64,000 nt of DNA, from the sequence record MT446390.1. The stretch is one strand, 5' to 3'. Positions 41,786 through 52,360 of the stretch are shown here, one piece after another. The notes beneath the pieces are model-generated. The model was not told the origin of the DNA, ran no database searches, and worked only from the letters and a program-made list of their open reading frames with translations. This stretch comes from Escherichia phage TH12. The first letter of the stretch is position 1. Every line of letters begins with the position of its first letter. Position numbers and translations under genes: made by a program.

Positions 41786-44497
41786 ATGAAAGAATTTTAC
41801 TTAACGGTTGAACAGATTGGTGATTCAATTTTTGAACGTTACATCGATTCTAATGGCCGTGAACGTACTCGTGAAGTAGAATATAAACCATCGTTGTTTG
41901 CACATTGTCCAGAAAGTCAGGCTACTAAATATTTCGATATCTACGGTAAACCTTGTACTCGTAAGTTGTTCGCTAATATGCGTGATGCCTCCCAATGGAT
42001 TAAACGCATGGAAGATATCGGACTTGAAGCACTTGGCATGGACGATTTCAAATTGGCGTATTTGTCTGACACTTATAACTATGAAATCAAATACGACCAT
42101 ACAAAAATTCGTGTGGCTAACTTCGACATCGAAGTAACATCTCCGGATGGGTTCCCTGAGCCGTCACAAGCAAAACATCCGATTGATGCTATCACCCATT
42201 ATGACTCAATTGACGACAGGTTCTACGTATTTGATCTATTGAATTCTCCGTATGGTAATGTAGAAGAATGGTCTATCGAAATTGCGGCTAAGCTTCAAGA
42301 ACAAGGCGGTGATGAAGTTCCATCTGAAATTATCGATAAAATCATTTATATGCCATTCGATAACGAAAAAGAATTGTTGATGGAATATCTCAACTTCTGG
42401 CAACAGAAAACTCCTGTCATTTTGACTGGATGGAACGTTGAGTCATTTGATATTCCATATGTGTATAACCGAATCAAGAATATTTTTGGCGAATCTACTG
42501 CGAAACGTTTATCACCACATCGTAAAACTCGTGTTAAAGTTATCGAAAACATGTATGGTTCTCGTGAAATCATTACATTGTTCGGTATCTCTGTTCTTGA
42601 TTACATTGACCTTTACAAAAAATTCTCTTTTACCAATCAACCGTCGTATTCTCTGGATTACATTTCAGAATTTGAATTGAACGTTGGTAAACTGAAATAT
42701 GACGGCCCTATTTCTAAGCTTCGTGAAAGCAATCACCAACGATATATAAGCTATAACATCATCGACGTGTATCGTGTATTGCAAATTGATGCTAAGCGCC
42801 AGTTCATCAACTTGAGTTTGGACATGGGTTATTATGCTAAGATACAGATTCAATCTGTGTTTAGCCCAATTAAAACATGGGATGCTATTATTTTTAATAG
42901 CCTTAAAGAGCAGAACAAGGTGATTCCACAAGGTCGTTCTCACCCGGTTCAACCTTATCCTGGCGCTTTTGTTAAGGAACCTATTCCAAATCGATACAAA
43001 TATGTAATGAGTTTCGACCTTACATCTCTGTATCCAAGTATTATTCGCCAAGTGAATATTAGCCCAGAAACAATAGCAGGAACGTTTAAAGTAGCTCCAT
43101 TGCATGATTATATTAACGCAATCGCTGAACGTCCTTCAGATGTGTACAGTTGCTCCCCTAACGGCATGATGTATTATAAAGACCGTGATGGTGTAGTTCC
43201 AACTGAAATCACTAAGGTCTTTAATCAACGTAAAGAACATAAAGGTTACATGCTTGCAGCTCAACGTAATGGTGAAATAATTAAAGAGGCATTGCATAAT
43301 CCTAATCTTTCTGTTGACGAACCATTAGATGTTGATTATCGTTTCGACTTCACTGATGAGATTAAAGAAAAGATTAAAAAGTTGTCTGCTAAATCTCTTA
43401 ATGAAATGTTGTTTAGAGCTCAACGTACTGAAGTTGCAGGTATGACTGCACAGATTAACCGTAAATTGCTCATCAACTCACTTTATGGTGCACTTGGCAA
43501 CGTTTGGTTCCGTTATTATGATTTGCGTAATGCTACTGCAATCACAACATTTGGTCAAATGGCTTTACAATGGATTGAACGTAAAGTTAATGAATATCTG
43601 AACGAAGTTTGTGGTACAGAAGGTGAAGCTTTCGTTCTTTATGGTGATACAGACTCTATTTACGTATCTGCAGATAAAATTATTGATAAGGTTGGTGAAT
43701 CTAAATTCCGTGATACCAACCATTGGGTAGACTTCTTAGATAAGTTCGCACGTGAACGTATGGAACCAGCTATTGATAAAGGTTTCCGTGAAATGTGTGA
43801 ATACATGAACAATAAACAACACTTAATGTTCATGGACCGAGAAGCTATCGCTGGTCCTCCGCTTGGTTCTAAAGGTATTGGCGGATTCTGGACTGGTAAG
43901 AAACGTTATGCATTAAACGTGTGGGATATGGAAGGAACCAGATACGCTGAGCCTAAACTCAAAATCATGGGTCTCGAAACACAGAAATCTTCGACCCCTA
44001 AAGCAGTACAGAAAGCTCTTAAAGAATGTATTCGCCGTATGCTTCAAGAAGGTGAAGAATCATTACAAGAATATTTTAAAGAGTTTGAAAAAGAATTCCG
44101 TCAATTGAATTATATTAGCATCGCGTCGGTATCTTCTGCGAATAACATTGCTAAATATGACGTTGGTGGATTCCCTGGTCCTAAATGTCCGTTCCATATT
44201 CGTGGAATTCTGACATATAACCGAGCTATCAAAGGTAATATTGATGCTCCACAAGTTGTAGAAGGCGAAAAGGTATACGTTCTGCCTTTACGTGATGGAA
44301 ACCCGTTCGGTGATAAATGTATCGCATGGCCTTCTGGTACTGAAATCACAGATTTAATTAAAGACGACGTACTTCATTGGATGGACTACACTGTTCTCCT
44401 TGAGAAGACATTTATTAAACCACTTGAAGGATTCACATCAGCAGCGAAACTCGATTACGAGAAGAAAGCATCTCTGTTCGATATGTTCGATTTTTGA
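41786..44497 (+). CDS. 43: DNA polymerase gp43 (family B), RB69-type
   Basis: 903 aa; exo motif FDIEV, pol motifs SLYPS and YGDTDS; matches recalled RB69 gp43. Confidence 0.98.
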   Translation: MKEFYLTVEQIGDSIFERYIDSNGRERTREVEYKPSLFAHCPESQATKYFDIYGKPCTRKLFANMRDASQWIKRMEDIGLEALGMDDFKLAYLSDTYNYEIKYDHTKIRVANFDIEVTSPDGFPEPSQAKHPIDAITHYDSIDDRFYVFDLLNSPYGNVEEWSIEIAAKLQEQGGDEVPSEIIDKIIYMPFDNEKELLMEYLNFWQQKTPVILTGWNVESFDIPYVYNRIKNIFGESTAKRLSPHRKTRVKVIENMYGSREIITLFGISVLDYIDLYKKFSFTNQPSYSLDYISEFELNVGKLKYDGPISKLRESNHQRYISYNIIDVYRVLQIDAKRQFINLSLDMGYYAKIQIQSVFSPIKTWDAIIFNSLKEQNKVIPQGRSHPVQPYPGAFVKEPIPNRYKYVMSFDLTSLYPSIIRQVNISPETIAGTFKVAPLHDYINAIAERPSDVYSCSPNGMMYYKDRDGVVPTEITKVFNQRKEHKGYMLAAQRNGEIIKEALHNPNLSVDEPLDVDYRFDFTDEIKEKIKKLSAKSLNEMLFRAQRTEVAGMTAQINRKLLINSLYGALGNVWFRYYDLRNATAITTFGQMALQWIERKVNEYLNEVCGTEGEAFVLYGDTDSIYVSADKIIDKVGESKFRDTNHWVDFLDKFARERMEPAIDKGFREMCEYMNNKQHLMFMDREAIAGPPLGSKGIGGFWTGKKRYALNVWDMEGTRYAEPKLKIMGLETQKSSTPKAVQKALKECIRRMLQEGEESLQEYFKEFEKEFRQLNYISIASVSSANNIAKYDVGGFPGPKCPFHIRGILTYNRAIKGNIDAPQVVEGEKVYVLPLRDGNPFGDKCIAWPSGTEITDLIKDDVLHWMDYTVLLEKTFIKPLEGFTSAAKLDYEKKASLFDMFDF

Positions 44498-44537
44498 TAT
44501 AATGCCATGGACGGTAAACTAATTAAATGAGAGAAAT

Positions 44538-45173
44538 ATGAAAACTACACCAATCACTATCGCTATTGACGCAATCGTAAAACAAGCTTCATCTCTTGCC
44601 ACTATGGCTAAAGTAATTAGTCAAAACTCTGCCCGATATAATGCTATTCTTGAAACTCTTCGTCGCCCTGGACTGAGTAATTATGAAAGCCGAGTAATTA
44701 TTACAGGTGTTGGTAAGAACGCTAATATCGCAACTAAAGCTTCCGAGACTTTTGCTTCACTAGGTATTCCTAGCATGTATTTGAACACCGGGCATTATTC
44801 TCATGGCGACGCAGGGTTTATTGCACCTAATGATGTATTAGTTCACATCAGTCGTTCTGGTAAGACTGAAGAAATGATAGGTGTTGCTAAACATCTTCGT
44901 ATGATTCGTCCTCAGGTTAAACAGATTCTGTTACATTGTAACCCTGACATTCCGCAAGAATACGAAGCTCTTTTTGATTATACGTTCTGTACAGGCATCG
45001 CGGTAGAGGTTGATGAGAATTCTCTGGCTCCGACCATGTCCACTACATTGTTGTTAGCGCTTATCGATACGTTTGCTATCAACCTTTCGTCTGAACGTGG
45101 ATTTACCTCTAATGACTTCCTTAAGTTCCACCCTGGTGGTGCACTAGGTGCCATGTTACGAGGCGAACAATGA
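44538..45173 (+). CDS. SIS-domain sugar-phosphate isomerase (arabinose-5-phosphate isomerase-like)
   Basis: SIS motifs ITGVGKN and SRSGKTEE. Confidence 0.7.
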   Translation: MKTTPITIAIDAIVKQASSLATMAKVISQNSARYNAILETLRRPGLSNYESRVIITGVGKNANIATKASETFASLGIPSMYLNTGHYSHGDAGFIAPNDVLVHISRSGKTEEMIGVAKHLRMIRPQVKQILLHCNPDIPQEYEALFDYTFCTGIAVEVDENSLAPTMSTTLLLALIDTFAINLSSERGFTSNDFLKFHPGGALGAMLRGEQ

Positions 45174-45313
45174 AAGCAATAACAATAGGACTTTTACTAT
45201 TGATGCTTGTCATGACTATCTACTGGAGCTTAACGGCTCCAGTAATGATTCCGACTCTTATAATCGGATGGATTATGATTGGACTACAAACAAAGTATGA
45301 ATGCTTTAACTAG
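45170..45313 (+). CDS. small membrane protein (47 aa), absent from track
   Basis: ATGA-coupled to isomerase gene; hydrophobic throughout. Confidence 0.35.
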   Translation: MKAITIGLLLLMLVMTIYWSLTAPVMIPTLIIGWIMIGLQTKYECFN

Positions 45314-45326
45314 AATAGTGTACAAT
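45299..45326 (+). promoter_or_regulatory. candidate MotA-dependent middle promoter
   Basis: gaaTGCTTTA, 12 nt, TACAAT, about 30 nt upstream of ATG 45355. Confidence 0.35.
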
Positions 45327-45354
45327 ACACCTACTTACCAATGAGGACCACAAC

Positions 45355-47040
45355 ATGAAAAAAGCTGTTATTCTTGGTGCTGGACTGGCAACTCGTTTGT
45401 ATCCAATAACGCACCATATTCCTAAGGTGCTTGTTAACTATAAACAAGACACTATTCTGAGCAATTTGTATACAATTTATTCTGACCTTGGTGCAGATGA
45501 AATTATTGTAGTAGTTCATTCAAAATTTGTTGAAACTGTTCGAGCTTATTGTGAGCAAGAAGGGTTCAATGTGACTATTCGTACAGTTGATGAAGCGTAT
45601 GGTTCTGCTTATGCTCTTGCTAAATTATACAAAGATTTAGATGGCCATAATGTAATTGTTAACTGGTGTGATATTATTCCTGATTTTGGTTCATGGTCTT
45701 GGAATGTTAACGCAATCTATGTTAAGGGTGACGAATGTCGATATAATTTCGACGGTGAAAATATCACTAGCGTAGGTTCAACAGGTGGTAATGTTGTAGG
45801 AATTTATCAGTTCAAAGACTGGGAATTCTATATGGGTTCTACTGATGAGGAAATTCATGAATACTGCAAAGGACGTGATTTCGTAGAATTCCTTTACGGC
45901 AGCGCATTCAATAAATCAGAGCTTATGAATCTAATTGATTTAGGTGATATGCCTAAACTTGAAAAAGCTCATGAAGTTCGTGAACTTAATCGTAGTTTTA
46001 ATGCAGTTGAAATTGGTGAAGAAACTGTAACTAAATTCGCATTAACCGAACAGGGCCGAGCTCTTCAGAAAGATGAGATTTCATGGTATCTTAAAGTGAA
46101 ATCAGATTCAGTTCCTCAGTTAGTTTCTGTTAATGAAAATAACTTTGAAATGGAACGCATTAAAGGTAAGCCGGCATTTGAATATATTAAATCCAAATCG
46201 AGTCTTGCTCGTCCACAAATTGTTGATGCAATTTTAGATGCACTGAAATTCAGCACAGACACTTATTTTGTAAGTCCTGAAACTGTTCGTCGTGATTTCA
46301 CTAAAGAATTCTATACGAAAGTTATTGATCGTTGTGAAAGCATTCAACCATTGATTGATTCATTTGGTAAAATCACACATGTGAACTACACTAAGATTGG
46401 ACGTCTGAAGCCAATGCTGAAACAAGCTTTAGAACACCTTATTCGTTATCATAACCGTTCTCAGGGACAGTACTCTGTTATTCATGGTGACCCGAACTTC
46501 AGTAATACTATGATTACTGATAACGGCGAAGTCAAGTTTATCGACCCTCGTGGATATTTTGGCGAAACCAAGATTTACGGGCCAAAATTGTACGATGAAG
46601 CTAAAGTGCTTTATGCTGTTTCAGGTTATGATGAATTCAATGCTAATCCGACCTGGGGACAGTTTACTATTGATGAAACAACTTGTAATGTGACTATTAA
46701 CATCAATCCATTAATTTACAAATATGGAAAGATGAGTTCGTTTAACGAGTATCATCATTTGGCGGTGGCAATTATCTGGATTGCATTAGGTGGTTATTTC
46801 AAGAATAATCCACTTAAAGCGGTAGCCGCATATTATAAAGGTATGGAACTTCTGACTAAGCAATTACGCAACATGGGCCGTGTACTTCAAGACGGCTCTA
46901 TTAGTTATGACGTAGCAGAACCTGTAACGGCTACTCTGATTACAAAAAATCCTGGTAAATGGGTACTAACTGATAAAGAAACTGGTGTTTCCTATCGTCC
47001 AATCGGTGGCGATATCACTCATCAATGGGAACGAATCTAA
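45355..47040 (+). CDS. bifunctional sugar-1-phosphate nucleotidyltransferase / anomeric sugar kinase fusion (MurU-AmgK-like)
   Basis: N-terminus GAGLATRLYP; C-terminus HGDPNFSNTMI ... FIDPRGYFG. Confidence 0.65.
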   Translation: MKKAVILGAGLATRLYPITHHIPKVLVNYKQDTILSNLYTIYSDLGADEIIVVVHSKFVETVRAYCEQEGFNVTIRTVDEAYGSAYALAKLYKDLDGHNVIVNWCDIIPDFGSWSWNVNAIYVKGDECRYNFDGENITSVGSTGGNVVGIYQFKDWEFYMGSTDEEIHEYCKGRDFVEFLYGSAFNKSELMNLIDLGDMPKLEKAHEVRELNRSFNAVEIGEETVTKFALTEQGRALQKDEISWYLKVKSDSVPQLVSVNENNFEMERIKGKPAFEYIKSKSSLARPQIVDAILDALKFSTDTYFVSPETVRRDFTKEFYTKVIDRCESIQPLIDSFGKITHVNYTKIGRLKPMLKQALEHLIRYHNRSQGQYSVIHGDPNFSNTMITDNGEVKFIDPRGYFGETKIYGPKLYDEAKVLYAVSGYDEFNANPTWGQFTIDETTCNVTININPLIYKYGKMSSFNEYHHLAVAIIWIALGGYFKNNPLKAVAAYYKGMELLTKQLRNMGRVLQDGSISYDVAEPVTATLITKNPGKWVLTDKETGVSYRPIGGDITHQWERI

Positions 47041-47426
47041 TGCACCGTGTAGAAAACATGCTTAATCTTTGTTTTGATGTCGATGATTGTATAACAGAGT
47101 GGAATAACAATCGTGATTACGTGAACTTCAAACCAGACGTCGAAATGGTGTCTGCCATTAATGCCCTGTATGATGCAGGGCATACCATAACGCTTTACAC
47201 TGCTCGTGGTATGAAGTCAGTAGGTCCTGGTCGTATAGCAATTGACATTCTCCCAAGTCTGATTCAGAACTTGGCAAACATTGGCTTGAAGTACCATAAT
47301 TTGCTAACACATAAACCAGTATATGATTGGATTATCGACGACAAAGCTATGCGTCCTGACGAATTCAAAGCTCTTATGAATAAAGGCGAATTCGAAACAT
47401 TTAAATCGTATAAACCGAATCTATAA
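47040..47426 (+). CDS. HAD-superfamily phosphatase-like protein
   Basis: HAD motif I FDVDDCIT near N-terminus; start may be 47025 or 47058. Confidence 0.55.
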   Translation: MHRVENMLNLCFDVDDCITEWNNNRDYVNFKPDVEMVSAINALYDAGHTITLYTARGMKSVGPGRIAIDILPSLIQNLANIGLKYHNLLTHKPVYDWIIDDKAMRPDEFKALMNKGEFETFKSYKPNL

Positions 47427-47484
47427 TAATTTAAGTAAGACCTGCAAAAAAACCATCGCATCAATTAACGCGAGATGCAAAAAA

Positions 47485-48645
47485 ATGAATACTTTTAAAA
47501 TCGGAACGAATTTTGATTTAGCTCTTCTTGATAAAATCGTAGAGCTCAATAAAACCTATCCTAATAGCTTGATAAACGAAGTATATGGCTCTACAAGAGA
47601 AATGGCTTTTGTAGCAGCCAGACCTGATTTTAGGCTTCCTGACGTTGACAAAAAGATGTTAGAAGACTACGTTAAACGTTGTAACGAATTAGGTATTTGC
47701 TTTAACTATACACTCAACACGATAAATCCTGGTTCAAAAAGAGAACTAGTTGAGTGGAAGAAGAAAGCTATTCAGGATTATGTTCAGTATCTTTGGTCAA
47801 TAGGCGTATGGCGTATTACTATCGCTAACCCTGTTGTTATGGAAATTGTTCGTGAAGTCAATAAAGATATTGAGATTGAAGTTTCAACAATTCTACATGT
47901 CGATGCGGTAACTCAAATCAAATACTTACATGACCAATATAACATCAAAAAGGTCTGTTGCGGAATTCATAAGAACCGTTCAGTTTCTTTCCTGAAGCGT
48001 GCAGCAGAGTTTTGCAATAAGAACAATATAATATTTGAAGTTCTTGTAAATGAGTTCTGTTCTAATGCTGGTAAAGGGTATACAACACATTGTAGTTATC
48101 GTGACTCTTGCTATATTTTCCATAGTACTGATGTTACAGCTGATGATGCTAAATCCTTAAATGGATATCCAATGCAACACTGCATTAAAGCTCGTGATAC
48201 AGACCCATTTAACTGGTTGAGAACTCGTTTTGTTCGTCCTCAAGATTTGAAACTTTATAATGATATTGGTATCACTCAATTCAAAGTTTCAGGACGTACA
48301 GGTAGCACAGACTACATTTTGAAAGTTCTTGAAGCATACGCTTCTGAAAAGTTTGAAGGTAATTTGTTAGAACTGTGGAAGCCTTTAGAGACTATTTTCA
48401 CTCTTGAAAATGAGACTGAGTTTTCACATACAGTAAATATTGAAACCTCTTTGTTAGATGGCTTTTTAGAAAAAAGGTGGTTCAGACATCCAGATTTTGA
48501 TTGTGCTAATGAAATCTGTGGGTCAACGTGTACATATTGTGAAAGGTATTATAAACGTCAATTATCTAAAAACGGGTTAGCAGAAAACTCCATATCTATT
48601 ATTGATATAACTAACTCTGATGACGCTTTGAGGTACCCGGAATGA
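47485..48645 (+). CDS. Cys-rich putative Fe-S enzyme (386 aa); weak peptidase-U32-like features
   Basis: YTLNT motif, C-terminal CxxxCxxC; family call is tentative. Confidence 0.35.
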   Translation: MNTFKIGTNFDLALLDKIVELNKTYPNSLINEVYGSTREMAFVAARPDFRLPDVDKKMLEDYVKRCNELGICFNYTLNTINPGSKRELVEWKKKAIQDYVQYLWSIGVWRITIANPVVMEIVREVNKDIEIEVSTILHVDAVTQIKYLHDQYNIKKVCCGIHKNRSVSFLKRAAEFCNKNNIIFEVLVNEFCSNAGKGYTTHCSYRDSCYIFHSTDVTADDAKSLNGYPMQHCIKARDTDPFNWLRTRFVRPQDLKLYNDIGITQFKVSGRTGSTDYILKVLEAYASEKFEGNLLELWKPLETIFTLENETEFSHTVNIETSLLDGFLEKRWFRHPDFDCANEICGSTCTYCERYYKRQLSKNGLAENSISIIDITNSDDALRYPE

Positions 48646-48881
48646 TTTCTAGAAAAAGTTTTAATTATAAACTTAACGAAGAGATTTTGACTATGAAACT
48701 GAACACTAACGAACAAATTCTTAAAAAGGCCCTTATGGGCCTGTTTGAAACCAAAGCGGCTAAAGTGATTAAAGAACCTGTTCAATTGGAATACTACACT
48801 GATGCATTCCTTCATAGTGTTCTTGGAAGTATAGATTCTGAAGCTTTACGTTATATCAACATTGTCAAGAAATTCAAATAA
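48642..48881 (+). CDS. hypothetical protein (79 aa)
   Basis: ATGA overlap. Confidence 0.45.
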   Translation: MISRKSFNYKLNEEILTMKLNTNEQILKKALMGLFETKAAKVIKEPVQLEYYTDAFLHSVLGSIDSEALRYINIVKKFK

Positions 48882-48923
48882 GCTTTATGAATTGAGTATA
48901 TAATAAATTGTATTGAGGTAAAT

Positions 48924-49640
48924 ATGGGAAAACATAACACAATGAAATATATCAAAGCCGCAGATTTTCAAACCGCATTTAAAGCAGTCAATCGTGAAAT
49001 TTTAGAAAACCCCGAATTCGTAACTGATTCTCGTATTGGACGTTGTAATGAAATTGGGTCTATGACAGTAGTTGTTGACACTCCATCATCATTCAAAATG
49101 ACCGACCCACGTATTAACCGCATCTCTTATGAATATGCCGAAGACTTCTGGAAGTTTATGATTTCTGGTGGTACCAACGCAGAAGAAGCGTTTAAGGCAT
49201 ATCCTAATGTCGCTAAATTTATTTCTAAACCAAAATCAGATGTTTTGCCGGCGAACTTCAACACTTTCTATGGTCCTCGCATTGCGGCCCAATTACCAAC
49301 TCTTCTAAAAGAACTTAAAGAAAAACCTAACTCTCGAAGAGTTGTGTTCCAAATTCTAGAAAGTTCTGATCAGGCTTTGCTTGATTCGGACGAAACACTT
49401 GAATATCCATGTACTGACTCAGTAACTTATTATATTCGTGATGGTAAGCTTTATACCCACTGTCATATGCGTTCTCAGAACTGTGCTGTTGTTATGCAGT
49501 TGGATTTTTATCTCCAAGGAAAATTACTTCATTATATCGCTAACGAATGTGGTGTAGAAGTTGGTGATTATACTCATACCATGGTAAGTGCCCATGTGTT
49601 TGAACGTGATTTTGATTATGTTAAAGGATTCCTTGACTAA
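48924..49640 (+). CDS. 42: thymidylate-synthase-fold pyrimidine hydroxymethylase (dCMP hydroxymethylase, gp42 position), divergent
   Basis: NSRR, YPCTD, MRSQN..D motifs; position between 43 and uvsX. Confidence 0.6.
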   Translation: MGKHNTMKYIKAADFQTAFKAVNREILENPEFVTDSRIGRCNEIGSMTVVVDTPSSFKMTDPRINRISYEYAEDFWKFMISGGTNAEEAFKAYPNVAKFISKPKSDVLPANFNTFYGPRIAAQLPTLLKELKEKPNSRRVVFQILESSDQALLDSDETLEYPCTDSVTYYIRDGKLYTHCHMRSQNCAVVMQLDFYLQGKLLHYIANECGVEVGDYTHTMVSAHVFERDFDYVKGFLD

Positions 49641-50539
49641 TGGCTATTTTCCGCGTACCAATCTTGAGTATGCGGTCTTATGAAACTGGACAGTATGCTA
49701 TCCTTAAGGATGGCAACTTCCAACTTCATTTGCACCGTGCTAATCCGGGTGATGTGATTACATATCCACGTAATGCATCTGATATTAAAGAATGCGAACG
49801 TCTTTTCCCAGAATTTAAGTTTGTTCCATTATGGTATAAAGATAACGCGTATAACACTCGTAAATATTTCTGGACTGAAAATGAATTTGTGGTTGATTCA
49901 TTAATTGATTATTATGATTGTGATTTTCTAATCACAGATATCACTGGTTATGGCGGCGCTTTTGATGTGGAATTCAATTTCAATATCACTGCAGACCCTA
50001 ATAAACCACGTTTTTATATTGATGAATTCTTAAAAACCGACATGTTGTCTGTTAATCGTTCACTTCAAACTACTGTGTTGAATGAACGTCAAAAAGGAGT
50101 GCTGGTTAACGCAGGTGCAGATGGTAATAAGATTATCGTAACGCAGAAAGTTATACGTCCTTCCATCATGCAGCGTCTTGTAGGTGATTTGGCTCCTATT
50201 CATCTAGATGGTATTTTTCATCCATTTCGAATTAGTGACCCATGTTATCGTTTTGAACAAGTGGTTGAATGTGCAATTCAATTAGGTCAACCGCTTTATA
50301 TAACCGATCCAAATAATAGCTTCGACAGAAATAAGTATCCTGAAGAAGCGCTGATTCGAATTTTTAAACCAACTAAAACTGAGTACTATCAAATTCTTAA
50401 AGGACGTCCGAAAATTCAATATTTCGAAAATCCTGAAGAAGTATTCCATCCAGGTCTTGGTGAGTTCATCTACTTTAATGCTTTAATTTCTTCGCCGTAT
50501 AATATACCTAAATACGAAGATGTCGTAATCGAGGAATAA
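49640..50539 (+). CDS. hypothetical protein (299 aa) at the T4 beta-gt position; candidate DNA glycosyltransferase
   Basis: Position only; no resemblance to T4 beta-gt. Confidence 0.35.
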   Translation: MAIFRVPILSMRSYETGQYAILKDGNFQLHLHRANPGDVITYPRNASDIKECERLFPEFKFVPLWYKDNAYNTRKYFWTENEFVVDSLIDYYDCDFLITDITGYGGAFDVEFNFNITADPNKPRFYIDEFLKTDMLSVNRSLQTTVLNERQKGVLVNAGADGNKIIVTQKVIRPSIMQRLVGDLAPIHLDGIFHPFRISDPCYRFEQVVECAIQLGQPLYITDPNNSFDRNKYPEEALIRIFKPTKTEYYQILKGRPKIQYFENPEEVFHPGLGEFIYFNALISSPYNIPKYEDVVIEE

Positions 50540-50540
50540 A

Positions 50541-51089
50541 ATGGCTAAAATTATTTTAGTAGACGGCCCAGATAATGCTGGTAAAACAACTTTCATTAAT
50601 GACATAATGGAAATTAGTGAAAGATATGTAAAGATTGATTTCCCTAAACGAACAGTTGATGGACGTTTCGATGTTAAGTCTCGAAATGAAGTTGGTTGTT
50701 TCGAAACGATGTTGAATTATTTAGACCCTACTAAGATTTATCTGTTAGACCGTGGATATATTAGTAACTGGGTTTATGGACGTATTCGACAAGATGCGGA
50801 CTCGGTTCTTGACGTTTATGAACAGGACTATGTTCGTCTTTGCCAAAACCATGATGTGTTCACAATTATTTTAACACGTAACGAAATGACTGAAAGTTTT
50901 GAAGACGACCTTATTACTTTGTCTTCATTCGGTTTTAATACAGTCGTTTCACATTTTGAAGAGTTTGCAATTCATAACAAAATCCAAACATATCAATTAC
51001 TTAATCATGATGGTGCTAACAAAGTTATAGGATTTAATGCAAGCGAACGTAATTGTTTGATTACAGAAATCATCAAATGGGCTCGTTAA
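50541..51089 (+). CDS. P-loop kinase-like protein (182 aa)
   Basis: Walker A DGPDNAGKTT at N-terminus. Confidence 0.5.
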   Translation: MAKIILVDGPDNAGKTTFINDIMEISERYVKIDFPKRTVDGRFDVKSRNEVGCFETMLNYLDPTKIYLLDRGYISNWVYGRIRQDADSVLDVYEQDYVRLCQNHDVFTIILTRNEMTESFEDDLITLSSFGFNTVVSHFEEFAIHNKIQTYQLLNHDGANKVIGFNASERNCLITEIIKWAR

Positions 51090-51187
51090 GAGCCATTTAA
51101 AGTTTTAAATGCTGTATAACCCTTAGTATATAATCGTCTTATCTTTTAAACATGAGTAAAATATAATGATGCCTATGGAAAAATACA

Positions 51188-52360
51188 ATGTCTGATTTAA
51201 AATCTCGTCTGATTAAAGCTTCTACTTCTAAAATGACTGCGGACTTGACTAAGTCTAAGCTGTTTAATAATCGTGATGAAGTCCCTACTCGTATTCCGAT
51301 GTTGAATATCGCACTAGGTGGTGCTCTGAATGCAGGATTGCAATCAGGCTTGACTATTTTTGCTGCACCTTCTAAACACTTTAAAACGCTGTTTGGACTA
51401 ACTATGGTTGCAGCGTATATGAAGAAATATAAAGATGCAATCTGTTTGTTTTATGACTCAGAATTTGGTGCTTCAGAATCTTATTTTCGTTCAATGGGTG
51501 TTGATTTAGACCGTGTAGTTCATACTCCGATTCAATCTGTCGAACAACTTAAAGTTGATATGACTAATCAGCTTGACGCGATTGAACGCGGTGATAAAGT
51601 TATTATCTTTATCGATTCAATCGGTAATACTGCATCTAAGAAAGAAACCGAAGATGCATTGAATGAGAAAGTCGTAGGTGATATGTCTCGTGCTAAGGCA
51701 CTTAAATCTCTGTTCCGTATTGTGACTCCTTATCTGACTATTAAAGATATTCCATGTGTTGCAATCAACCATACAGCAATGGAAATCGGCGGATTGTATC
51801 CTAAAGAGATTATGGGCGGTGGTACAGGTATTCTTTATTCTGCCAACACGGTATTTTTTATCTCTAAACGTCAGGTTAAAGAAGGTACAGAATTGACCGG
51901 TTATGACTTCACGTTGAAAGCGGAAAAATCTCGTACAGTTAAAGAGAAATCTACTTTCCCGATCACGGTTAATTTTGATGGCGGTATTGACCCATTCAGT
52001 GGCTTGTTAGAAATGGCAACTGAAATTGGTTTTGTAGTTAAGCCTAAAGCCGGGTGGTATGCTCGTGAATTCCTTGACGAAGAAACAGGCGAAATGATTC
52101 GTGAAGAGAAATCATGGCGTGCTAAAGCTACTGATTGTGTAGAATTCTGGGGACCTTTGTTTAAACATAAGCCTTTCCGAGATGCAATTGAAACTAAATA
52201 TAAACTAGGTGCTATCTCTTCTATTAAAGAAGTTGATGACGCTGTTAACGACCTTATTAATTGCAAAGCAACAACTAAAGTTCCGGTTAAAGCTTCTGAT
52301 GCTCCGTCTGCAGCAGATATAGAAAACGACCTTGACGAAATGGAAGATTTCGATGAATAA
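51188..52360 (+). CDS. uvsX: RecA-like recombinase UvsX
   Basis: MSDLKSRLIKASTSK ... matches T4 UvsX (390 aa). Confidence 0.95.
   Translation: MSDLKSRLIKASTSKMTADLTKSKLFNNRDEVPTRIPMLNIALGGALNAGLQSGLTIFAAPSKHFKTLFGLTMVAAYMKKYKDAICLFYDSEFGASESYFRSMGVDLDRVVHTPIQSVEQLKVDMTNQLDAIERGDKVIIFIDSIGNTASKKETEDALNEKVVGDMSRAKALKSLFRIVTPYLTIKDIPCVAINHTAMEIGGLYPKEIMGGGTGILYSANTVFFISKRQVKEGTELTGYDFTLKAEKSRTVKEKSTFPITVNFDGGIDPFSGLLEMATEIGFVVKPKAGWYAREFLDEETGEMIREEKSWRAKATDCVEFWGPLFKHKPFRDAIETKYKLGAISSIKEVDDAVNDLINCKATTKVPVKASDAPSAADIENDLDEMEDFDE

Follow-up and report, generated by a model that had tools for sequence, protein, structure and literature searches.

The DNA of many T4-like phages, including candidates for phage therapy, contains arabinosylated 5-hydroxycytosine (5hoC), a base that shields it from restriction enzymes, DNA glycosylases and some CRISPR systems. 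As far as our incomplete coverage of the literature goes, one step of the pathway that makes this base, the joining of the sugar to the base, has no demonstrated enzyme, and a conserved extra kinase has no assigned purpose. The question of which proteins fill these two positions is raised by a pair of adjacent genes in the 64,000-nucleotide (nt) stretch of Escherichia phage TH12 DNA analyzed here (MT446390.1; hereinafter, the window), which encode proteins of 299 and 182 amino acids (aa), denoted GT1 and KIN, respectively. In our assessment, the chances are somewhat better than even that GT1 and KIN are the transferase and the dedicated kinase of the arabinosyl-5hoC pathway, with the first sugar transferred to DNA, that is, after replication. 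The preliminary description of this DNA, which was made from the sequence alone, presented the 299-aa protein as a candidate novel DNA glycosyltransferase. In fact, neither protein is novel: their orthologs in RB69, and likewise in DLP3, have been named 'arabinosyltransferase 1' and 'nucleotide kinase', as predictions (Lee et al., Nucleic Acids Research 2026; PMC13326640), and these roles were assigned for RB69 in 2025-2026 from the same kind of evidence as used here. What the present analysis adds to that literature are kinase-transferase fusions, the co-distribution of the two genes, and the existence of GT1-only phages.

The chemistry of the pathway has been established mostly for RB69. Arabinose was reported in the DNA of this phage, with ORF003c proposed as the transferase, by Thomas et al. 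in 2018 (PMC6024577), and the modified base was subsequently revised to arabinosylated 5hoC (PMC13326640). The thymidylate synthase (TS) homolog of RB69, gp48, has been shown experimentally to make 5-hydroxy-deoxycytidine monophosphate (5hodCMP) with flavin and O2 (PMC13326640). Over positions 44400-51300, the window shares 99.3% identity with Escherichia phage CCU7, and its identity to over 150 genomes of Mosigvirus amounts to 97-99%; judging by this similarity, it is a Mosigvirus, that is, an RB69-like coliphage. The order of its genes, namely DNA polymerase, SIS isomerase, a 561-aa nucleotidyltransferase/kinase, a HAD family protein, a U32 family protein, a 79-aa open reading frame (ORF), the TS homolog, GT1, KIN, uvsX, gene 40 and gene 41, matches that of RB69 p055 to p045. 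The GT1-KIN pair is thus flanked by the TS homolog on one side and uvsX on the other. The equivalent interval of T4 contains imm, gene 42, beta-gt and segA, such that the slot of GT1 and KIN is held by beta-gt and segA in T4, and the earlier placement of the 299-aa protein at the beta-glucosyltransferase (beta-gt) position was a fair one.

The stop codon of the TS gene (TAA) overlaps the start codon of GT1 (TAATG), a single base separates the GT1 stop from the KIN ATG, and GAGGA is located just 5' of that ATG; these features indicate that TS, GT1 and KIN are translationally coupled. Because of this coupling and the presence of homologs in hundreds of phage records, GT1 and KIN (the latter protein starts MAKIILVDGPDNAGKTT) are real genes rather than chance ORFs; in the ORF listing of the window, both begin with ATG and occupy exactly the positions originally given for them (Table 1). 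A scan for promoters and terminators was uninformative (20 promoter-like sites vs 26 expected).

GT1 is 96.7% identical to p047 and 100% identical to p046 of RB69, which are parts of a single gene that is split in the RB69 record by one extra T at gene position 545; the ORF is intact in the window and in 340 other phage records (at least 80% of the protein covered). Residues 1-298 match phrog_3891 ('unknown function'; E-value 4.2e-155), and GT1 shares with RB69 gp46:47, DLP3 gp79 and Thanatos TH1_063 both this family and the location directly downstream of a TS-type 5hodCMP synthase. In many GenBank relatives, the gene carries the wrong label 'RNA polymerase binding protein'. The family is small and essentially phage-only: it comprises 135 clusters, all devoid of Pfam domains, in a set of 5.8 billion proteins and 231 representatives in a set of 1.84 billion, and a search of 185,579 species genomes yielded a single match, on a phage-sized 167-kb contig.

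Sequence searches with GT1 detected no Pfam family at E-values up to 1 (including Glycos_transf_1) and no NCBIfam match, and no relative was found by sequence in PDB even with a 41-sequence profile. The lack of resemblance to T4 beta-gt noticed in the preliminary description was borne out, with an HHalign probability of 0.1% for the GT1 family against T4 beta-gt, and with the profile PF09198 matching T4 beta-gt (E-value 8e-97) and not GT1. No sequence relationship exists either between GT1 and the family of the RB69 gp3 and HY126 transferases (PDB 9iqz, 9ir0; hereinafter gp3-type or GT2; HHalign probability 0.09%), which are encoded elsewhere in the genome. GT1 was recognized by fold comparison only, which gave a positive answer to the fold check suggested earlier: the protein has the GT-B fold, that is, two Rossmann-like beta/alpha/beta domains that are superposable on known GT-B enzymes. 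The comparison values are 17.8 for sucrose-phosphate synthase (6kih), 16.7 for BshA (6n1x), 16.0 for PimA (2gej), 14.6 for the HY126 phage transferase (9iqz) and 13.3 for T4 alpha-glucosyltransferase (alpha-GT; 1y6f), the latter ranking 28th among the structural matches; the top Foldseek match is MshA (3c4q, E-value 1.6e-6). This result independently reproduces the published prediction for the RB69-type protein, and GT1 is the strongest candidate for the transfer of the sugar.

The closest structural neighbors of GT1 are thus GT4-type retaining GT-B enzymes that use UDP- or GDP-sugar donors (6kih, BshA, MshA, PimA; 244-269 aligned residues), from which GT1 differs in its sequence (7-12% identity, no Glycos_transf_1 match), its length (40-100 residues shorter) and its near confinement to phages. 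The invariant residues of the family include an SMRS...KDGN loop in the N-terminal group and, in the C-terminal domain, FPFRISD(K), TDPN, K246 and HPG...E275. These groups presumably lie where the diphosphate and ribose contacts of GT-B enzymes usually are, and the family consensus FPFRISDK resembles what we take to be its counterpart, the R-x-x-x-K diphosphate-binding loop of these enzymes. The invariant H270-P271-G272, followed by E/D275, is located at the start of the helix that would correspond to the one with the E-x7-E motif in GT4 enzymes; the canonical E-x7-E is absent in GT1.

KIN is 98.4% identical to RB69 p045 and, by its motifs, is best described as a divergent thymidylate-kinase-like nucleotide kinase. 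The Walker A motif noticed near its N-terminus is indeed present (GPDNAGKT, residues 9-16); G9, D11, N12, G14, K15 and T16 are invariant among close homologs, and D11, K15, D70, R71, S75 and Y79 do not vary across a set of 22 divergent homologs. The profile made from these 22 homologs matches SPbeta YorR with an E-value of 1.8e-8 and the thymidylate kinases of yeast, Candida, vaccinia virus and Staphylococcus aureus with E-values of 2e-7 to 1e-5. Alignment of KIN with the yeast enzyme matches GPDNAGKT with EGLDRTGKTT, FPKR with FPER, and LDRGYISNWVY with MDRYVYSGVAY. KIN combines the thymidylate-kinase fold with a P-loop GxxxxGK[ST] that includes the aspartate typical of thymidylate kinases and with the DR[YF]..S...Y motif, in which the residue following DR is not aromatic. 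Compared with the thymidylate kinases (yeast 1tmk, vaccinia 2v54, S. aureus 4dwj) and YorR, KIN has Asn in the P-loop where the class I enzymes have Arg, its clade has Gly in place of the Tyr/Phe of the DRY motif, and it remains below the curated thresholds (no PF02223 match at E-values up to 1; 16.1 bits for TIGR00041 vs the cutoff of 83.25). A comparison with the T4 gp1 kinase (1dek) showed neither structural nor sequence similarity of the kind sought. Both KIN, as predicted here, and the T4-gp1-type kinase RB69 gp159 are phage-encoded kinases for modified deoxycytidylate, an activity on 5hodCMP having been shown for gp159 (PMC13326640). The genomic context predicts that KIN acts on a deoxycytidine monophosphate (dCMP) that is oxygenated at C5 and perhaps glycosylated, rather than on thymidylate (dTMP). 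The earlier suggestion of a nucleotide or sugar kinase holds in its first part; a role as a sugar kinase is not supported by the fold and motifs, and within the pathway this function is assigned to the C-terminal domain of the 561-aa protein.

A physical link between the two proteins is provided by fusions. Among the best 150 of the 231 GT1 representatives, there are 8 GT1-kinase fusions and 1 kinase-GT1 fusion (Table 1). The fused kinase domain is homologous to the KIN family (HHalign probability 96.3%, E-value 1.5e-9, 140 columns), with the motif pairs EGFDRIGKD/DGPDNAGKT and MTRLFVSDYVY/LDRGYISNWVY (fused domain/KIN). A narrow hidden Markov model of close KIN homologs missed these domains, which were found with a broadened alignment and profile-profile comparison. 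Seven further representatives within the same set contain an N-terminal domain that we describe only as HAD-like, from its DxDG motif (DFDGIF); this domain shows no significant similarity to the HAD protein of the window (HHalign probability 2.4%).

To assess the conservation of the gene neighborhood, we compared 61 related loci, with the ORFs classified by iterated profiles, and derived counts from the 50 loci that extend at least 2.5 kb on either side of GT1; many of these loci are closely related, and the counts are descriptive. A TS homolog is located immediately upstream of GT1 in 42 of the 50 loci and is present anywhere in 45, KIN is found in 48 loci, in 35 of which it lies next to GT1 or is fused to it, and the sugar-supply genes are less common (nucleotidyltransferase/kinase in 36, HAD in 30 and SIS in 23), as is the U32 gene (22). 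The hydroxylase, the transferase and the kinase form a conserved, translationally coupled core. Distant metagenomic phages, in which GT1 is only 37% identical, possess minimal modules that consist of a Flavodoxin_2 gene, TS, GT1 and KIN, with no sugar-activation genes and no other gene with a glycosyltransferase Pfam match within 8 kb.

Of 50,697 phage records, 348 contain GT1 and 343 contain KIN, and the two genes hardly differ in their counts by genus. The gp3-type transferase is present in 211 records that include only Escherichia/Shigella Mosigvirus and Acinetobacter phages (two copies in the latter), and was not found in this data set in Klebsiella, Serratia, Enterobacter, Proteus, Yersinia or Thanatos phages; about 137 records, those of Thanatos included, have GT1 and lack a gp3-type enzyme. 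Given this difference (348 vs 211 records), GT1 appears to be the universal transferase, and the narrower distribution of the gp3-type enzymes suggests that they add the second sugar and do not replace GT1. Furthermore, the number of gp3-type copies (0, 1 or 2) agrees with the degree of arabinosylation reported for the DNA of Thanatos (mono-), RB69 (di-) and DLP3 (tri-) (PMC13326640). A tblastn search with RB69 gp3 gave no match in the window; the gp3-type gene is located next to rIIA and, in CCU7, lies about 7 kb past the point where the window ends. The preliminary description had named the discovery of a transferase elsewhere in the genome as an outcome that would speak against its proposal, and formally the gp3-type gene is such a transferase, although GT1 is not replaced by it.

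Taken together, these observations are compatible with the following scheme. The TS homolog would hydroxylate dCMP to 5hodCMP, the step that has been demonstrated experimentally; KIN would phosphorylate the modified deoxycytidylate towards the triphosphate; and the replicative polymerase would incorporate the latter. The donor, uridine diphosphate (UDP)-arabinofuranose, would be made by the products of the upstream SIS, kinase/pyrophosphorylase and HAD genes, GT1 would move the first alpha-D-arabinofuranose from this donor to O5 of 5hoC, and the second arabinose would be added by a gp3-type transferase encoded outside the window. That the first transfer would occur on DNA, as in T4, is the default reading. 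In addition to the lack of detectable sequence similarity, GT1 would differ from T4 beta-gt in the sugar, arabinofuranose rather than glucose, and in the acceptor, 5hoC with an ether link on C5 rather than 5-hydroxymethylcytosine (hmC). The hmC acceptor assumed in the preliminary description does not fit the locus: the neighboring TS homolog is about 97% identical to 9iqc, its RB69 ortholog makes 5hodCMP, and the DNA contains arabinosyl-5hoC (PMC13326640).

Several findings weigh against this scheme. Isolated transferases, DLP3 gp79 among them, were inactive on 5hoC-DNA, and for purified gp79, a GT1 homolog, this was the case with UDP-arabinofuranose (UDP-Araf) or UDP-arabinopyranose (UDP-Arap), the data not being shown (PMC13326640). 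The RB69 gp159 kinase converts 5hodCMP to the diphosphate (5hodCDP) in vitro, and expression of the TS homolog alone results in 5-hydroxydeoxycytidine (5hodC) in Escherichia coli plasmid DNA (PMC13326640), so that KIN is not obviously needed for the 5hodCMP step. Thanatos TH1_063, a homolog with 48% identity to GT1, is reported to form UDP-xylose from UTP and xylose-1-phosphate (PMC12838424). Furthermore, GT1 is acidic, with an isoelectric point (pI) of 5.2 and a net charge of -9 (family median -10), in contrast to the basic T4 beta-gt (pI 9.05), which is unusual for a DNA-binding enzyme; UDP-N-acetylglucosamine (UDP-GlcNAc) 2-epimerases of the GT-B fold also score well against it in Foldseek; and within our incomplete coverage of the literature, we found no published biochemical activity for GT1 or KIN.

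Part of this evidence would fit a pathway in which glycosylation precedes replication, the main alternative, although it seems rather unlikely. In that case, GT1 would arabinosylate free 5hodCMP, KIN would take arabinosyl-5hodCMP, the polymerase would incorporate the glycosylated dCTP analog, and only the second sugar would be added on DNA. The order of the genes, TS-GT1-KIN, would then equal the order of the reactions, in agreement with the fusion of GT1 and KIN in both orders, their adjacency in most loci and their co-distribution, and with the apparent redundancy that KIN would otherwise have, 5hodCMP being processed by RB69 gp159 and even by enzymes of the host. The acidity of GT1, the inactivity of its purified homolog on 5hoC-DNA, while the GT2-type enzymes act on DNA, and the use of small, often phosphorylated acceptors by its best structural matches (sucrose-phosphate synthase, BshA, MshA) point in the same direction. 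Fusion, however, is no proof of consecutive steps, as the HAD-GT1 fusions illustrate, given that a HAD phosphatase step would not directly precede the transfer in the proposed donor pathway; the linkage would be explained equally well by a self-sufficient mobile cassette with its own 5hodCMP kinase; and the negative assay on DNA, reported as data not shown, may be due to the wrong donor anomer or a missing partner. To our knowledge, every characterized phage DNA glycosylation is post-replicative, those by T4 alpha-GT and beta-gt included, and pre-replicative glycosylation of a nucleotide, if true, would be the first in any DNA-modification system. The third arabinose of DLP3, too, is put on DNA, by gp76 and gp77, and homologs of gp3 act on DNA that is already arabinosylated (PMC13326640). 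The linkage between GT1 and KIN (co-distribution, adjacency and fusion in both orders) offers a reason for the failure of the isolated transferase in vitro: either its partner was missing or the acceptor was the wrong one.

The UDP-xylose formation by TH1_063 in vitro, together with the presence of UDP-GlcNAc 2-epimerases among the best Foldseek matches and the fact that the transferase role has so far only been predicted, would be accounted for if GT1 were a donor-supply enzyme, either a UDP-pentose pyrophosphorylase or an epimerase-like protein of the GT-B fold, with the first transfer carried out by a gp3-type or another protein. This appears quite improbable because sugar nucleotidyltransferases differ in fold and one such enzyme is already available in the locus as the N-terminal part of the 561-aa protein, because the Thanatos DNA is pentosylated (PMC12838424) in the absence of a gp3-type enzyme, which leaves GT1 as the only candidate with a transferase fold in that phage, and because the minimal TS-GT1-KIN modules contain neither genes for sugar activation nor another glycosyltransferase. 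In Thanatos itself, TH1_064 is a KIN homolog with 43% identity. The published activity of TH1_063 conflicts with the GT-B fold of the family and with the fact that its locus encodes a nucleotidyltransferase of its own, TH1_060, and the DNA-transfer assay in that study used ordinary plasmid DNA, with no sign of 5hoC in it (PMC12838424). The identification of KIN as a deoxynucleoside monophosphate (dNMP) kinase is also subject to an alternative, whereby it would act on bases in DNA, in the manner of the 5-hydroxymethyluracil DNA kinases of phages that hypermodify thymidine, on a sugar, or on nicotinamide riboside, similarly to NadR. Kinases of the P-loop type that add a phosphate to the hydroxyl group of a base in DNA reportedly function in other phage hypermodification pathways (work attributed to Lee et al., 2018 and 2021), and one KIN homolog has the Pfam domain AAA_28. 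Nevertheless, the P-loop aspartate and the FPxR and DRxxxSxxxY motifs of thymidylate kinases are conserved, phosphorylation of O5 would presumably block rather than help glycosylation, and the pathway already has an assigned sugar kinase; we regard this alternative as the least probable of all.

The remaining genes of the cluster are listed in Table 1 together with features of the related loci. The TS homolog matches PDB 9iqc/9ir2 with an E-value of 2.9e-160 and is about 97% identical to 9iqc/9ir2/9iqu (6 differences in 238 residues), and Lee et al. cite a crystal structure of the homologous HY126 enzyme with bound flavin (PMC13326640); given this near identity, the labels 'deoxycytidylate 5-hydroxymethyltransferase' and 'thymidylate synthase' carried by its relatives are misleading. 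Among the proteins of the pathway, HY126 structures in PDB are limited to the hydroxylase and the gp3-type transferase; GT1, KIN, the 561-aa enzyme and the U32 protein are not represented. The GenBank record of HY126 uses no Afh gene names. The C-terminal part of the 561-aa protein gave weak kinase-fold matches. The Flavodoxin_2/FMN-reductase-like gene is directly upstream of TS in one of the minimal modules (L005) and farther upstream, in a larger cluster, in another locus (L003); such a neighbor is in keeping with a hydroxylase that depends on flavin and requires a flavin reductase. The cluster of the window contains no gene of this kind.

Table 1. Location of the genes and motifs discussed, in the window and in related loci
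Feature	Location	Strand	Basis or remark
SIS-domain arabinose-5-phosphate isomerase (predicted; RB69 gp55)	window 44538..45173	+	Pfam SIS, E-value 9.6e-10; same annotation in relatives
50-aa ORF between the SIS and nucleotidyltransferase genes	window 45148..45300	+	short hypothetical gene annotated there in relatives
Bifunctional sugar kinase/UDP-sugar pyrophosphorylase (predicted), 561 aa (RB69 gp52:53, HY126 AfhE type)	window 45355..47040	+	N-terminal Pfam NTP_transferase, E-value 3.7e-9; role from PMC13326640
HAD-type phosphatase (RB69 gp51, HY126 AfhF type), predicted UDP-arabinofuranose supply	window 47025..47426	+	ORF; role from PMC13326640; annotated start in relatives 15 nt downstream
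U32 peptidase-family Cys-rich protein	window 47485..48645	+	Pfam PF01136, E-value 7.3e-11; RB69 gp50 ortholog
79-aa conserved ORF	window 48642..48881	+	RB69 gp49 ortholog; phrog_8601 (unknown function), E-value 2e-50; start overlaps the U32 stop; found in only some related loci
TS homolog, predicted flavin-dependent dCMP 5-hydroxylase (5hodCMP synthase)	window 48924..49640	+	ortholog of RB69 gp48
GT1, GT-B-fold glycosyltransferase, predicted first (base-proximal) arabinofuranosyltransferase	window 49640..50539	+	ortholog of RB69 gp47+gp46 ('arabinosyltransferase 1'), intact
KIN, predicted thymidylate-kinase-like (d)NMP kinase	window 50541..51089	+	ortholog of RB69 gp45
Walker A/P-loop of KIN	window 50565..50588	+	sequence; aligns with thymidylate-kinase EGLDRTGKTT
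uvsX	window 51188..52360
Split GT1 gene of RB69 (p047/p046)	NC_004928 24597..25497; L007 2098..2998
TH1_063 of Thanatos	L002 4995..5897		GT1 homolog
uvsX-type gene of Thanatos (TH1_067 to TH1_070)	L002 7917..10317		annotated in two pieces around a GIY-YIG Seg-like homing endonuclease gene
GT1-kinase fusions (P0243, P0249, P0255, P0260, P0267, P0280, P0284, P0285) and kinase-GT1 fusion (P0259)	L067 5412..7064
HAD-GT1 fusions (P0165, P0175, P0178, P0180, P0192, P0207, P0226)	L055 5443..7104; L068 8001..9650		N-terminal HAD-like domain
Flavodoxin_2/FMN-reductase-like genes	L005 6739..7293; L003 605..1123
U32 genes in loci without TS	L056 6909..8048; L058 9061..10176; L059 5783..6862; L061 6861..7961; L067 10029..11150

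The U32 family protein encoded upstream of the TS homolog was referred to in the preliminary description as an Fe-S protein and was listed there among the possible transferases, a role that is not supported, given its membership in the peptidase U32 family. It contains ten invariant cysteines, including a CX4CX3CX2C motif at residues 340-352, and shows a weak match to UbiU. We take this family to include the O2-independent hydroxylases RlhA, TrhP and UbiU/UbiV; RlhA is needed for the formation of 5-hydroxycytidine in 23S rRNA. Five of the loci encode GT1, KIN and a U32 protein with 49% identity, and have no TS-type hydroxylase within the flanks examined. TS, U32 or both are present in all 50 loci, and in the five TS-less ones, U32 is the sole hydroxylase candidate. 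By this pattern of occurrence and its family membership, the U32 protein is possibly an alternative hydroxylase of cytosine C5 that would not require oxygen. Its RB69 ortholog was labeled 'sugar or heterocycle reductase' by Lee et al., who did not mention the U32 hydroxylase family (PMC13326640). An O2-independent route to 5hoC would make sense for gut phages.

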